From NCBI RefSeq assembly GCF_054482525.1, contig NZ_CM137006.1: a stretch of 64,000 bases of DNA; one strand, written 5' to 3'. Made by a program: the position numbers. Numbering within the stretch: the first letter of the stretch is position 1; every line of letters starts with the position of its first letter. Of this stretch, positions 43,901-49,900 are shown one piece after another.

Positions 43901-46900
43901 TTGCAGCTTGCCTGGCTTTATCTTATTCCGGATGTTTTATGGTAGATACAGAATACAATTAATTAAACTTATTTAAAGATTTTATAAATACCATATTGGA
44001 GTTGACCGACAGATACCTACTAACAAGAGCAATCACCACCACCCCATGAGGTGGTTTAGGAATACAATCAATAAACAACATCCATGCCCGGCGACGTACA
44101 TACCTGTTTGCTATGATATCTGTTACGCTACGCTTGCTAATTTACTGAAACTCAGCGTCTGTCGACGGAGATTCGTCCGGGCCCTGATACAACAAGGGCA
44201 AGAAAACCACCCGAAATACAGATATTCTTATAAAAATGGATCATATTTCCATGTGCAAGTTCAGCTGGCATCGTCCAGAATGCGTGTCCAAGAAATGAAG
44301 CAAGCACGGTATACAGGCACAGAATAATGCTCACTGGCCGGGTGAAAAAACCAAAAACAATCATTAATGCTCCAACGATTTCGACAAGGACCACTATTGC
44401 TGCAGTAATCGCCGGAAATATAAGCCCAAGAGAGGCCATTTTATCGATAGTGCCAGTGAATGATAGCAGCTTGGGAACGCCGGATATCATATAAAGGCAT
44501 GCCAGCATCAGACGGGCAAGGAGCAACAATGCCGACGTGTAATTTCCCATATTAAAATACCTGATTTTATCCACTATCAATGCTCAGTCTCCTTGTTTCT
44601 GATAAAGCCCTGAGCCAAATCCTTAAGTGTACGAGCACCACTCAGTAACATTGCCGTCCTCAGTTCCGTCTTCAGGTGCTCAATGACACCGGCAACGCCC
44701 CCGACACCACCTGCTGCGATGCCATAAAGAACAGGACGTCCGACCGCAACAGCCGTTGCCCCAAGAGAGATAGCCCTTACAACATCAATCCCCCTGCGAA
44801 TACCGCTGTCAAAAATGACCGGAACTTTGTGCCCGACTCTTGCAGCAACTTCCTGCAACTGGCTGATGGCAGAAGGAACACCATCAATCTGGCGACCACC
44901 ATGATTAGACACCTGGATGGCATCTGCTCCTGCATCAATGGCAACCACTGCATCCTCACCCCTGAGGATGCCCTTGACAATGACCGGCAGCCCGGTGATT
45001 TTTTTTACAAACTCAATATCAGCCGGGGTCAGCTCAACTTTTTGGTTAAAAAAATCACCTTTGCCACCGTAACGGGGGTCATGATTACCGAACGTCGCTC
45101 CTGCAGGGAAAGGCGAGCTCATGCTGAGAAAAGCATCACTTGTCCCGGGACCAAGCGCATCCGCTGTGATAATAATGGCTGAATAGCCTGCCGCTTTTGC
45201 ACGCTCCAGTAAACTTCGGGTCACACCAGCATCCGCGTTAAAATACAGCTGGAACCATTTAGGTCCTTTACTGGCTTTTGCAATATCCTCCAGAGAGCGG
45301 TTGGATGCCCCTGATGATTCATAAAGTGCCCCGGCCTTTTCTGCACCCGCTGCAGCAATCACCTCCCCTTCCGGATGGACGAACATATGCGCGCCCATAG
45401 GTGCTATCAGCAGGGGATGTTCCAGATGATGGCCCAAAAGGTCAGTCCGGATATCAATGCTGTGGGCAGCAACTCCACTGAGTCGGTGAGGTAACAAAGG
45501 ATAATCACTGAATGCCCTGCGGTTCTCATGATACGTCCACTCATCTCCAGCACCATGAGCAATATATGCATACGCGGCTTCCGTCATCACTTCTTTTGCT
45601 GAAGCCTCCAGTCTGTCCAGACTGATGATATGAAGAGACTTGCTGGTCGATGTATCAGCATGTCCGGACGTTTTACTGATGATATGTGTCGTTGAAGATG
45701 AGATATTTTTGGCAAGGGCCGGCGCAGATGACAGTCCTGCGGCAGATATCCCTAAAACGGCATTCTGAATAAAATTACGTCGGGAAAGAGGCATAATAAG
45801 CTCCATATATTTATTATAAGCCAGGTCTCCCTGGCTTATAATAATCATGCCACGCCCTGAAGCGGGTTGGTGTTGAAGGTATAAAGGAAAATTTTCCATT
45901 CACCATTAATTTTACTGAGGACAAAAACTTCACGGTTCAGGTCAATAATGGTTTTCTGCTCTTTAAAGTTCGTTACAACAGAACCCACATGGTGGTGAGT
46001 GCGGACAACCGCGGTATCTCCGTTGATCCAGATAGAGTCAAACGCAAAATCGGTCTCAAACTTTTCACGCTTGAACAGATCATCGTACTGCCCCTGGCGT
46101 TTTTCTGTATTGTCAGCCGTCAACTTATCATTCCACTGGGAATAACTTTCATCAGCAAACAGGCCCAGGATGGTTTTTGTATCCCCGGCATTCAGTGCGT
46201 TCTGATACTTGATTATCGTGTCATACACGTTCTTCTGCTCAGTAGCAATCTTACTGTCTGTGGAGTATTTGAATGTACCGCCGGATTGTTCAGGTGAGCT
46301 TTCCTTCTGTGCTGCCGACGATGAGGCAGCCAGAGCATTAGAGCCGAAAAGAAGGGATGATGCCATGACTGCTGTTGCTATAAAATGTTTCATATATTCT
46401 CCATCAGTTCTTCTGGGGATCTGTGGGCAGCATATAGCGCTCATACTATGCTGCTGTTTCAATATTAGCGGCAGACGTCAGCCTTACCGCACTACTTATT
46501 GGATAAGAATATCAAAAGTGACCGTGAAGTCAATTTTATCACAACACAGAAGGCCACTATTTATGCCAGAAAATATGAATCGTCCTCATCATGCACGAAA
46601 GACTCGTAGTTGCAGCCCGGAAAAAACTGCCAGGACACGACAGCAGATAGCCCGGGCAGCACTTGAGGAGTTCTCTGCACAAGGGTTCGCTCGCGCCAGC
46701 ATCAGCAATATCAGCAAGCGCGCAGGAGTAGCTAAAGGCACGGTATATAACTACTTCCCAACAAAGGAATTATTGTTTGAAGCGGTTCTGAAGGAGTTCA
46801 TTGCTACCGTCCGTACTGAACTGGAATCTTCCCCCCGCCGCAACGGGGAAACCGTAAAAGCCTATCTGTTGAGAGTGATGTTACCTGCCGTCAGGAAAAT

Positions 46901-49900
46901 TGACGACGCATCAACAGGCAGAGCCAGAATAGCCCACCTGGTTATGACAGAAGGGAGCCGGTTCCCGGTAATCGCTCAGGCTTATTTACGGGAAATACAT
47001 CAGCCACTACAGCAAGCCATGACCCAACTGATTCAGGAAGCAGCATCAGCCGGAGAGTTAAAAGCAGAGCAACTGCTCTGCTTCCCCTGTTTATTGCTGG
47101 CTCCAAACTGGTTTGGCATGGTGTATAACGAAGTTCTGAACCCGGCAGCACCGGTCAGTACAGGCGATCTTTTTGAAGCCGGAATTGGTGCTTTTTTCCG
47201 ATAGACACATAACTGTCAGTATTATGACCATGCCGTCAGGAGGAGGTATACCAGTGATACCCTGCCATGACCCGGTAACGTCTCCTGGCTGCCTTAAACC
47301 TGAAAGACCTGGCCCCACCACACTGCCGGTTACGCAGTCAAGATGCAGCAACCCTTGCATAAGGCTGTTTTGTGCAGAGGGCTACCGGAAAGATAATAAC
47401 GTCACAGCCCGTATGCATCAGATAAAACAGTGTATTTTATCTGTCAGCAGTCACTGGAGCGGATTGTGGGGCGAGATTCAGGTGCTGATACTGTAACGAC
47501 TCTGCGCCGCTGCTGCGGTAAAAGCGGCTGCCACCAGGCACGGTTATCAGAGGAGGATGACCGTGTCCGCCCCTGGTGGTGATGAACTCTCCATCACAAT
47601 CAATAATGCCGCCGGGTGGATGAAGCAGACAGGGATGGCAAGTCCCACCATCCCGGATAAAATGGGCCCTGGGCGCTCAGAAGACCTGTGTGTCAGGCAG
47701 GGGTGAGAACGGTGATGTTTTTTGTTGTCTGAAAGTCCAGCTCCAGCATTGTCTGCCAGCCTCAAGACTTCCGCTTTCTGCCCTTTCCGGCATTTTCTTC
47801 CGTTACCATCATTCTGTTAATTCAGAGGCGTAGTAGTAGTAAACGTAATACATATCCGGGAGGATGAAGTCATCTAATCCTGCTCCCCGAATATCATACA
47901 GCCATTCCTGAGTGTGACTGCACCATTTCCAATTACGCAGTCTGTCCTCATCACAAAAATGTTGCAAGCAGTGCGAAGTCACGTTCCGTATTCATGCCCT
48001 CTGCCAGATATTGAACGGGGGAGAAATGTGTAAGCGTCAACAGAGCGCCGTATTGACACTTATTTATCGGTGAAAACTACGTTCCATGGCAGCAGTTCGT
48101 CAACACGGTTGGAGGGCCATTCCGGCAGTACGCTCAGGATATGGCGCAGATACGCTTCTGGATCGATACCGTTCAACCGACAGCTCCCGATTAGTCCGTA
48201 CAGCAGAGCTCCGCGCTCGCCTCCATGATCGTTGCCGAAGAACATGTAGAACATGTAGATGATATGACCTTTATATACTCACTATAGCATTGGTGGGATA
48301 TTCCAGAGGAGGTCATCATGCATTCGGAAAATATTGCGGCTTACGTCGGGCTGGATGTGCATAAAGAAACGTTGGCGGTTGCTATTGCTGCACCTGAACG
48401 GCTTGGCGAAGTTCGTTATTATGGTACGATTAACAACGAAGCCCAGGCTGTACGTCGATTATTTCAGAAATTGCAGGGACTTTACGGAAACATTCTTTCC
48501 TGCTATGAGGCTGGCCCCTGTGGTTTTGGGCTATATCATCAACTCACAGCGATGAATATAAAATGCCAGGTTATTGCCCCTTCCCGCATACCAAAATCAC
48601 CGACAGACAGAATCAAAAATGATCATCGGGACGCAATTTCTCTCGCCAGGTTACTGCGGGCTGGAGAACTTACCCCTGTCTGGATCCCTGACCTGACTCA
48701 TGAAGCTATGCGGGATCTAATCAGAGCCCGTGCAGCAGCTAAACGAGACAGCAGAGTTGCCCGACAGCGAATTCTGAGCATGCTATTGCGAACAGACAAA
48801 CATTATGCAGGAAAGCACTGGACAGGAAAACATCGAACCTGGTTAGCTAATCAATCATTTAGTCAGCCATCTCAACAGATTGCTTTTCAACACTATTGTC
48901 AAAGTCTGGAGCAGATTGAAGATCGCATACTTCAACTCGACCAGGAAATATCTCGCCTGTTACCTGAGTGGTCTCTGTGCAATCTGGTCTGCCAGTTGCA
49001 GGCTCTTAAAGGTGTTGGTCAGCTAATTGCAATAACTCTGGTTGCTGAACTGGGTGATTTTTCGCGATTTTCCAATCCCAAACAGCTCATGGCTTTTCTG
49101 GGACTGGTGCCAGGTGAATATTCCAGTGGAAACAGTATTCGTCCCAGAGGAATAACAAAAGTTGGAAACAGCGAACTGAGACGTCTGCTTTACGAAGCCG
49201 CCTGGTCTTATCGTACACCTGCAAAAGTTGGGGCATGGCTTATATATTACCGACCGGACTCTGTAACACAATATTCCAAAGATATTGCATGGAAAGCTCA
49301 ACAACGATTGTGTTCTCGTTACCGAAGTCTGACAGCAAAAGGGAAAAAATCACAAGTAGCCATTACGGCGGTGGCTCGTGAGTTGACTGGATTTATGTGG
49401 GATATTGCACTTGCTGCCCAATCATCATTCAGTCAGCAGAAGCAAAATTAAACCCTGAAGCAGTCAGACACGGAATGAGTGATCCTCGTAAAAGAATTCA
49501 GGGAAGCCAGAATGCGCTAATACCTGCACGTAGAAAGAGGCCAGCTCACTGCGTAAATCGTCATGGGGCTAAAATCCCCGAATAAGAGTTTGTAAAATCC
49601 AAGATACAGTCTGACTGTTTCAGGTTCTTTAATCCGCGATATAACGAAGCTCCCGGAGCTGCGTAAGGTCTTTTTGGGCTTAATATTTGACAAAGGTCAT
49701 AAGAATTCTTTTTCCCGAGACAGACGGCACGAAGCGCTCTTTCTGCTGTGTTATTGTCCGCCTCCGCCAGACCGTCATCACTGTAATAACAGAGGGCGTC
49801 CCACTGATTCAGGACATAGCTGAACGCTTCGCCCAGTCGGGATTTTTTCGACAACGTGCCATTCTTCTCCACCATCCATTCATGCAGCGACGTCAGTAAC

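Follow-up and report, generated by a model that had tools for sequence, protein, structure and literature searches.

A Tat-signal flavin enzyme of an uncharacterised clade, encoded with a DoxX protein on an Escherichia coli pathogenicity island

Exported members of the flavin mononucleotide (FMN)-dependent 2-hydroxy-acid oxidoreductase superfamily are already documented, albeit as incidental results of a biosensor screen and in lineages other than the one treated here. The corresponding superfamily survey noted clades with N-terminal extensions (Tsvik 2022, PMC9670274). PauLDH of Photorhabdus australis, which falls outside the L-lactate oxidase (LOx) and L-lactate dehydrogenase (LDH) clades, has a predicted twin-arginine translocation (Tat) signal (likelihood 0.972), prefers S-2-hydroxyvalerate and displayed broad 2-hydroxy-acid dehydrogenase activity with 2,6-dichlorophenolindophenol (DCIP) in a crude-extract screen (PMC9670274). 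SsLDH of 'Shigella sp. FC1655' carries a predicted signal for the general secretory (Sec) pathway (0.997); the purified enzyme acts strictly as an L-lactate dehydrogenase, its activity with O2 amounting to 0.07% of the maximal dehydrogenase activity and that with 1,4-benzoquinone to 125 U/mg (PMC9670274). PaLCTO (PDB 6R9V/6RHT) was shown to be a strict dehydrogenase as well (PMC9670274). Here we analyse positions 44152-47204 of a 64,000-nucleotide stretch of contig NZ_CM137006.1 (RefSeq assembly GCF_054482525.1), hereafter the window, where a Tat-signal member of this superfamily is encoded together with a DoxX-family membrane protein, a secreted NTF2-like protein and a TetR/AcrR-family regulator.

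Small membrane proteins of the DoxX/D type are subunits of quinone-linked oxidoreductases, such as the thiosulfate:quinone oxidoreductase DoxDA and the hydroxyhydroquinone dehydrogenase BtdLS (PMC10084136), and MexG binds quinolone via its DoxX domain (PMC5477026). Lipocalins of the YceI family carry ubiquinone-8 or octaprenyl ligands (PMC9113575, PMC8981238). LldD and MdlB, the latter an (S)-mandelate dehydrogenase (MDH), share fold and chemistry with the enzyme of the window and deliver electrons to ubiquinone; unlike it, they work at the cytoplasmic face and possess a long loop-4 anchor. A mitochondrial dehydrogenase of the same FMN_dh family resides in a compartment equivalent to the periplasm, the intermembrane space, and feeds the respiratory chain, not O2. 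It differs from the enzyme of the window, which has no haem domain, in its fused cytochrome b5 domain and in donating to cytochrome c. To our knowledge, E. coli has no soluble respiratory cytochrome c.

All four genes lie at the positions given in the initial annotation, and its family assignments hold. The minus strand encodes, in order of transcription, the secreted NTF2-like protein (182 aa, 45845-46393), the FMN-dependent alpha-hydroxy-acid oxidoreductase-family enzyme (405 aa, 44577-45794) and the integral membrane protein of the DoxX family (44152-44580). The regulator (213 aa with the RefSeq start, 46563-47204, plus strand) is divergent from this operon. RefSeq offers generic names only ('YybH family protein', 'alpha-hydroxy-acid oxidizing protein', 'DoxX family protein', 'TetR/AcrR family transcriptional regulator'), and a literature search found nothing on the cluster itself.

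We suggest that the locus is a ligand-controlled operon for periplasmic oxidation of a compound resembling an (S)-2-hydroxy acid. A Tat-exported FMN dehydrogenase would oxidise some 2-hydroxy acid, though not plain lactate or glycolate, and would be re-oxidised by quinone via DoxX, with the NTF2-like protein as an accessory and TetR as the switch. We put the probability of this reading at roughly 0.45. Taken alone, the statement that the locus encodes an exported FMN enzyme of a distinct clade is far more secure, while DoxX as the electron route to quinone, judged separately, falls a little short even of the composite. The locus, though real and uncharacterised, varies known chemistry and does not amount to a system of a categorically new type. 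Of the initial proposal of an undescribed system one half stands, in that the clade of the window has apparently never been assayed; the other half does not, as signal-bearing FMN 2-hydroxy-acid dehydrogenases from other lineages have been known since 2022 (PMC9670274).

The enzyme, its export signal and its clade

The enzyme starts with the signal MPLSRRNFIQNAVLGISAAGLSSAPALA (residues 1-28, nt 45711-45794), and cleavage is predicted after A26-L-A28, before K and N. The signal holds the near-consensus Tat motif S4-R-R-N-F-I-Q10 and an AxA cleavage site, and its h-region is milder than that of the Sec-type signal on the NTF2-like protein (hydropathy 1.54 vs 2.01). The twin-arginine motif is found in about 100 of the 120 nearest homologues (52-93% identity), far above chance; most exceptions begin within the signal peptide and resemble miscalled starts. 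Because of this conservation, the Tat signal is a trait of the lineage and not of a single gene. The assignment is based on motif, h-region hydropathy, AxA site and homologue conservation. The passenger, an FMN enzyme, is of the cofactor-binding type usual for Tat. From these features we infer export to the periplasm by Tat, and the clean twin-arginine signal initially reported is borne out by them.

The Pfam family FMN_dh (PF01070) matches residues 66-399 along model positions 1-349 of 350 (E=8.1e-109). In the AlphaFold model, residues 55-400 form a beta/alpha (TIM) barrel, mostly with pLDDT >90, and the linker after the signal is predicted to be disordered to about residue 51. The match, together with the twin-arginine motif kept across the clade, upholds the claim of a Tat-routed enzyme of the glycolate/lactate-oxidase family. 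No curated equivalog lays claim to the enzyme: the NCBIfam equivalog for L-lactate oxidase (TIGR02708) gave 308.8 bits against its cutoff of 645.5, that for LldD (NF033901) 201.4 bits against 550, and the RefSeq names are generic. The best single-domain match in PDB is PaLCTO (261 bits); the L-lactate and glycolate oxidases (hereafter LOX and GOX) are close among solved structures (E 1e-65 to 1e-72). Judged from loop lengths, the long membrane-binding loop-4 insertion of dehydrogenases of the LldD/MDH type is absent.

Active-site residues were mapped by HMMER alignment of the enzyme onto LOX of A. viridans. Tyr40, Tyr146, Asp174, Lys241, His265 and Arg268 correspond to Y77, Y184, D212, K274, H298 and R301, of which the equivalents of Y184, D212, K274, H298 and R301 are invariant in the clade alignment. 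Ala95 corresponds to Gly134. Arg181, the second carboxylate-binding arginine (its counterpart in GOX is presumably Arg164), is replaced by Ser219, located seven residues past the catalytic Asp as in LOX, so that the set of seven canonical residues is incomplete. In LOX, the substrate carboxylate is touched by Arg181, Tyr40 and Arg268, and Arg181 additionally latches the Tyr215 lid (PMC4908395). A family-wide study treats the seven residues as conserved throughout the superfamily; of the 10 proteins without activity in its screen, 8 were missing one or more of these residues (PMC8491902).

The replacement extends to the whole clade. Every member examined has the signature A[LMI]GPGxS[DE]...FGNHDP and neither Arg nor Lys at the Arg181 column, while all of about 75 other family members (LOX-, GOX-, LldD- and lactate monooxygenase (LMO)-like) keep Arg or Lys there. 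His238 of the FGNHDP part is one of the clade-specific residues. These comparison loci, mostly cytoplasmic members with 31-45% identity, are among the matches listed in a survey of genome contigs with the generic motif VSNHGGRQ. At the Tyr40 position, E. coli has Tyr (Y77) and most clade members Phe. The initial annotation assumed a hydroxy-acid substrate. The hydride-transfer set and R301 speak for it; a simple hydroxy acid is uncertain, because one canonical carboxylate-binding residue is missing.

We conclude from sequence comparisons that the enzyme belongs to a compact, distinct and uncharacterised proteobacterial clade with a seemingly altered substrate pocket. It is regarded as compact and distinct because of few representatives, monophyly and the scores below both equivalog cutoffs. 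A loop-specific profile search of 1.84 billion proteins yielded about 14-23 representatives at 50% clustering, many of them fragments, and a metagenome scan with the clade-specific loop yielded 18 loci only, mostly from E. coli. The Tat clade is monophyletic and apart from PaLCTO in a neighbour-joining distance tree, which carries no bootstrap support; PaLCTO itself clusters there with a Sec-type gene of Salmonella and with Firmicutes sequences. Clade members come from Klebsiella, Dryocola, Acidovorax, Halomonas, Sinorhizobium, Paracoccus, Psychrobacter, Neisseria zalophi, Campylobacter pinnipediorum, Pasteurellaceae and one P. aeruginosa strain. Several of them (P0064, P0071, P0261, P0262, P0271), E. 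coli copies included, are named 'histidine kinase' in GenBank, which is a propagated misannotation.

The assayed exported relatives resemble the enzyme of the window in some respects and differ in others. Like it, PauLDH combines a twin-arginine signal with a soluble TIM barrel of the same superfamily, and it is of the dehydrogenase type and not lactate-specific. It sits on a separate branch of the tree, retains the canonical Arg and Ala (GNRETD, PPMAAH), has YceI and not DoxX or NTF2 as a neighbour, and was expressed for biosensor screening only. The Photorhabdus homologues (L011, L014) represent a second Tat-bearing group, the nearest relatives outside the clade, with 42-45% identity and the canonical Arg kept. 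SsLDH is likewise an exported enterobacterial flavin dehydrogenase, with negligible O2 reactivity and high activity on 1,4-benzoquinone. The Sec-signal gene of Salmonella (L119), PaLCTO-like and 55% identical to PaLCTO, is probably of the SsLDH type; its product differs from the window enzyme (39% identity) in nesting with PaLCTO, in keeping the Arg and in its Sec signal.

We also considered whether SsLDH might be the protein of the window. This was judged unlikely from the Sec call of 0.997, the inclusion rule of the superfamily survey (E<=1e-79) and the existence of the Salmonella-type gene. Only E. coli names occur among 40 of the 478 members of the protein cluster concerned. D-malate:cytochrome c oxidoreductase was dropped as a possible relative, being an unrelated FAD (flavin adenine dinucleotide)/Zn enzyme. 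Gly134 was tried and abandoned as a marker of oxidases versus dehydrogenases: PaLCTO has Gly, but Ala occupies this position in the Salmonella enzyme of the Sec type and in a number of PaLCTO-like sequences. A distant FMN_dh homologue from a metagenome-assembled genome of Burkholderiales (L041, 5917-7173) has a Tat-like motif RRQLLK and a CVSCH (CxxCH) motif in loop 4, and it could be an exported family member with covalent c-type haem.

DoxX and the proposed electron route

The DoxX protein (PF07681, E=1.2e-18) has three clear hydrophobic spans (about residues 13-36, 47-75 and 80-102) and a weaker fourth (118-135). RefSeq places its start at ATG 44550 (132 aa). The alternative TTG 44580 (142 aa) overlaps the TGA stop of the dehydrogenase gene as TTGA, is preceded by AAGGAG 8 nt upstream, and adds ten residues that are matched in alignment by the N-terminus of the Klebsiella orthologue, whose start codon is ATG. 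The spacing and the alignment favour TTG 44580, in line with the 4-nt overlap of stop and start noticed initially, and the RefSeq start is probably too short. An overlap of this kind, preceded by a strong Shine-Dalgarno sequence, implies that DoxX is translated together with the enzyme.

Such coupling of a DoxX gene to the gene of a catalytic subunit is that of the two-subunit DoxX/D quinone oxidoreductases. DoxDA and BtdLS likewise have a four-helix DoxX/D protein of about 135-140 aa beside the catalytic subunit and are quinone-linked, which agrees with the view of DoxX as a membrane partner of such enzymes (PMC10084136). They differ from the locus of the window in that their catalytic partners are unrelated to FMN_dh; further, the pairing in the window is not conserved in the clade and the complex is only putative.

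A quinone-handling protein adjoins, at least sometimes, each of three exported lineages of FMN dehydrogenases. In Salmonella enterica (L119, 3336-5125), a gene of a secreted YceI-family protein precedes the Sec-type FMN_dh gene. In Photorhabdus cinerea (L011, 6001-7857), such a gene follows the Tat-type FMN_dh gene, and P. caribbeanensis is without it. Neither DoxX nor YceI occurs within 6 kb of any of the about 75 cytoplasmic-type FMN_dh loci among the matches listed. In this sample, which is small and not randomly drawn, the combination of an exported FMN dehydrogenase with a quinone-binding partner may represent a general theme.

A possible course of the reaction is as follows. The enzyme would fold and bind FMN in the cytoplasm, then pass through Tat and lose its signal after ALA28. 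In the periplasm, hydride would be transferred from C2 of the substrate to FMN with participation of His298, Lys274, Asp212, Tyr184 and Arg301. Plain L-lactate or glycolate is an improbable substrate, because the second carboxylate-binding Arg, and usually also the Tyr40 equivalent, is replaced in the clade; a bulkier or differently bound 2-hydroxy acid is more likely, with medium-chain or aromatic (mandelate-type) 2-hydroxy acids as candidates. Quinone, rather than O2, is the most likely oxidant of the reduced flavin. DoxX, translationally coupled to the enzyme in E. coli and Klebsiella, might there present or dock the quinone, which would make the pair a hydroxy-acid:quinone oxidoreductase. 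The secreted NTF2-like protein may assist as an accessory, by binding or acting on either substrate or product. By analogy, the hydroxy-acid:quinone module proposed in the initial annotation draws support from the YceI neighbours and from the dehydrogenase nature of the assayed exported enzymes; what it loses is the status of a conserved module and the certainty of its substrate class.

Gene contexts and alternative explanations

Of 5426 complete E. coli genomes, 354 carry the module, 243 of them in intact form. It is always located directly upstream of uclABCD, and its gene arrangement is fixed within E. coli (ucl in 365 genomes, the uclA-DoxX junction in 359). The uclABCD-type (F17-like) fimbrial genes of the window (39696-43576, minus strand) are co-directional and follow the module immediately. 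The decayed copies consist of DoxX and the 3´ end of the enzyme gene, or carry an ISEc52 insertion, and retain the ucl operon. Truncated copies abut genes for two-partner secretion/haemagglutinin (e.g. NZ_AP026794.1 4592579-4593598, equivalent to 44152-45172 of the window). The ucl genes are thus genetically linked to the module, which does not imply functional membership. Ucl expression needs binding of OxyR upstream of uclA (PMC9236248). No terminator-like site was predicted after DoxX (segment 39696-44151). The module and ucl might be connected by read-through or by redox cross-talk.

The clade was sampled in about 12 independent genomic contexts, E. coli included. The FMN_dh-DoxX pair, in the same order, recurs on plasmids of Klebsiella, Enterobacter and E. 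coli, with 61 Klebsiella plasmids nearly all predicted to be conjugative (the one examined is IncF); the enzyme is 79% and DoxX 64% identical to the window proteins, and the NTF2 and TetR genes are absent. In Klebsiella pneumoniae plasmid pRGF20-1-181k (L115, 3194-13643), the pair stands amid genes for an ABC importer, zigA, a methyltransferase, a FolE2 remnant, a CobW-type GTPase and a Fur-family repressor, a setting that looks like an island of the zinc-limitation type. Control of the enzyme by zinc and Zur was rejected, as Zur-like boxes lie before the ABC importer and zigA and none before the FMN_dh gene. An NTF2-like gene is found beside the enzyme in 2 of 12 contexts; in the second one (L008) the gene order is different and identity 58-61%. 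One homologue (L007) has as neighbours genes for pirin, glutathione S-transferase (GST), a WrbA-like protein and an FMN reductase, a set characteristic of quinone-stress regulons.

The P. aeruginosa context (L004, GCA_016338555.1, 414-7440) contains a benzoylformate decarboxylase (718 bits vs the curated cutoff of 493), an aldehyde dehydrogenase, a glucose-methanol-choline (GMC) oxidoreductase and a vicinal oxygen chelate (VOC)/glyoxalase-like protein, both with twin-arginine signals, and the Tat-signal FMN_dh enzyme. A 66-aa TatA/E paralogue is encoded directly downstream. The gene content suggests a mandelate-type pathway in which three steps are exported and a dedicated Tat component is included. 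The clustering of a clade orthologue with mdlC-type and aldehyde dehydrogenase genes connects the clade with LldD and MdlB and gives a hint of a mandelate-type substrate.

Several observations weigh against the quinone-linked operon we propose. DoxX adjoins the enzyme in only 2 of about 12 contexts, namely in E. coli and on the Klebsiella-type plasmids, and these two pairings of close relatives probably stem from one event. The commonest partner elsewhere is no redox protein but a Sec-secreted hydrolase of the metallo-beta-lactamase (MBL) fold of about 318 aa, found in five contexts and three gene orders, usually together with LysR; it is similar only to generic class-B beta-lactamases and SoxH-like proteins, which gives no clue to the substrate. 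Three contexts are solitary. Solitary homologues of the NTF2-like protein exist as well, in Neisseria zalophi (79% identity) and Serratia. About 110 of the 354 carriers (about 31%) have the module truncated or disrupted by an insertion sequence (IS), and therefore it is dispensable. The closest characterised relatives of the enzyme are only 36-45% identical, therefore transfer of function is weak, and the sequence features checked include none that discriminates an oxidase from a dehydrogenase. Finally, the operator and promoter assignments described below are pattern-based candidates. The notion of a conserved four-gene system must be abandoned, with DoxX in 2 of about 12 contexts, the NTF2-like gene in 2 of 12 and this TetR beside the enzyme in E. 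coli only; the same survey likewise speaks against regular co-occurrence of DoxX with Tat-signal FMN dehydrogenases of this clade.

These points lead to the explanation that there is no integrated system at all. The Tat enzyme would work alone with any periplasmic acceptor, and DoxX, the NTF2-like protein and TetR would be independent genes packed together on a mosaic island, useful for example in quinone or electrophile stress. The partners indeed vary by lineage (MBL with LysR five times, mandelate-type once, none three times), the NTF2-like protein has its solitary homologues, the island is rich in IS remnants, the module decays in about a third of its carriers, and the L007 homologue is found amid genes of the quinone-stress type. 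We nevertheless hold this explanation for unlikely. The TTGA overlap and the strong Shine-Dalgarno sequence imply that the enzyme and DoxX are translated together. In Klebsiella, the two genes stand in the same order, although the proteins diverge by 21-36% and the genomic background is another one; the NTF2-like gene adjoins the enzyme a second time, differently ordered and with 58-61% identity. Moreover, a single promoter-like site faces all three operon genes, no terminator is predicted between them, and among the sampled loci DoxX or YceI adjoins exported family members only.

Another explanation, which we consider distinctly unlikely, is a periplasmic oxidase. Reduced FMN would react with O2, DoxX and the NTF2-like protein would be accessory or protective, and the H2O2 released into the periplasm could serve competition or signalling. 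Because the promoter of the adjacent ucl genes is activated by OxyR, substrate-dependent H2O2 could even raise Ucl fimbriation. LOX and GOX are close among the solved structures (E 1e-65 to 1e-72), the insertion in loop 4 is missing, several clade members are without a nearby redox-partner gene, which fits self-sufficiency, and the module and ucl, which needs OxyR (PMC9236248), are inherited as one block. On the other hand, strict dehydrogenase behaviour, with negligible reactivity toward O2, was seen in PaLCTO and in both exported relatives assayed (PMC9670274), and partners of the quinone-binding type recur beside exported family members. The solitary members live in Campylobacter, Neisseria, Pseudomonas and Psychrobacter. 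These bacteria are rich in cytochrome c, so that a housekeeping periplasmic acceptor is at hand. About 110 ucl-positive genomes have a truncated enzyme, which shows that ucl is independent of it.

The last alternative, a non-carboxylate or an esterified or conjugated substrate handled in a step of periplasmic detoxification or salvage (elsewhere with a secreted MBL or a VOC partner), would suit the clade-wide loss of an Arg that about 75 other family members keep, the usual Phe in place of Tyr40, the inactivity of most proteins without a canonical residue as 2-hydroxy-acid oxidases (PMC8491902), the MBL partner in three gene orders and the Tat-signal VOC partner in P. aeruginosa, but it is very improbable, since the hydride-transfer set and the main carboxylate-binding residue R301 are invariant, E. 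coli keeps Tyr77 and has no MBL or VOC gene in its module, and the benzoylformate decarboxylase of the P. aeruginosa context uses up a 2-oxo acid, just what a 2-hydroxy-acid dehydrogenase should produce.

If the quinone-linked reading is true, then islands of extraintestinal pathogenic E. coli (ExPEC) and conjugative plasmids of Klebsiella would feed the quinone pool from an extracytoplasmic organic acid with no import of the substrate. Such periplasmic flavin-based respiration would be outside the textbook respiratory repertoire of E. coli. The clade-wide loss of Arg marks an unexplored substrate specificity in a family used for biosensors and biocatalysis. Recurrent quinone-binding partners give a concrete, testable role to DoxX and YceI, which are widespread and of uncertain function. 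Given the complete linkage to Ucl, a gut-colonisation factor, a contribution to colonisation of the host merits attention; any such contribution would be conditional, because the module is frequently truncated. In its widest form, the proposal would be an unrecognised family of periplasmic flavin dehydrogenases that has a remodelled substrate pocket, recruited DoxX as a quinone outlet in enterobacteria to give a new entry point for electrons into the respiratory chain, oxidises a 2-hydroxy acid from host or diet (such as an aromatic or medium-chain acid of gut or urine), and, co-inherited with Ucl, aids ExPEC in colonising the gut or the urinary tract. We regard this as doubtful.

NTF2-like protein, control elements and island setting

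The signal of the NTF2-like protein (residues 1-23), MKHFIATAVMASSLLFGSNALA followed by A after the cleavage site, is of the Sec type, as initially annotated. Its hydropathy (2.01) agrees with this, and 85 of 90 full-length homologues have an N-terminal hydrophobic, signal-like segment. Pfam support for the fold is weak (SnoaL_2/DUF4440, E about 3e-3). The AlphaFold model, with core pLDDT >90, was matched by Foldseek to NTF2/KSI-like, SgcJ-like and LEH-like structures with probability 1.0 and target-normalised TM to about 0.86, which confirms, at the level of a model, the alpha+beta cone fold. The best structural matches have 10-19% identity, and their functions are unknown or unrelated.

Within the NTF2-like family, the strand motif R131-T-H-H(-H) (residues 131-135) is invariant, as are D151, N153, R154 and E155. 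Together these residues could be a metal-binding or catalytic site. The RTHHH motif matched none of the enzymes compared.

Between the genes of the NTF2-like protein and the enzyme, a hairpin is predicted at 45812-45843 (minus strand) with a 14-bp stem, a GGAG loop and dG of -25.6 kcal/mol (z = -5.4; 0 of 200 shuffles as stable). The FMN_dh start codon takes part in an outer helix of the predicted fold, with the stop region of the NTF2-like gene as the other strand. We infer a role of this hairpin in differential expression or translational control.

The regulator matches TetR_N (E=1.7e-15) and, weakly, TetR_C_7 and TetR_C_11; NCBIfam matches are below cutoff only. The 169-bp divergent control region (46394-46562) was read by consensus and pattern matches. 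A sigma70-like site runs from 46533 to 46506 on the minus strand toward the operon (TTGACT-16-TATTCT with TG), and promoter-like sites are not enriched over shuffles in this region. The operator search suggested for the region yielded two palindromic elements, a 14-bp near-palindrome GGCTGACGTCTGCC at 46470-46483 and an inverted repeat GCAGCATA-N12-TATGCTGC at 46427-46454, both within the predicted 5´ leader. Both are candidate TetR operators by pattern only.

The segment 44000-47300 is at least 99% identical to about 350 complete E. coli genomes besides those of UTI89, NU14 and UM146. Relative to its UTI89 counterpart, which lies between pap and cnf1/hly, the module shows 99.3% identity. In the window, the cluster is flanked by the sfa/foc and ucl fimbrial operons and by remnants of IS3, IS110 and IS66. 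The window is a segment of a pathogenicity island of ExPEC or uropathogenic E. coli (UPEC), and the description of the cluster as island-borne is correct. At the Rfam gathering threshold, the window further contains two copies of the Hfq-binding small RNA isrC (37836-37958 and 23151-23273), the antisense RNA AS-pc02 (35101-35279), a guanidine-II (mini-ykkC) riboswitch (976-1022) and a tRNA (14889-14961), which is a likely attachment site of the island.

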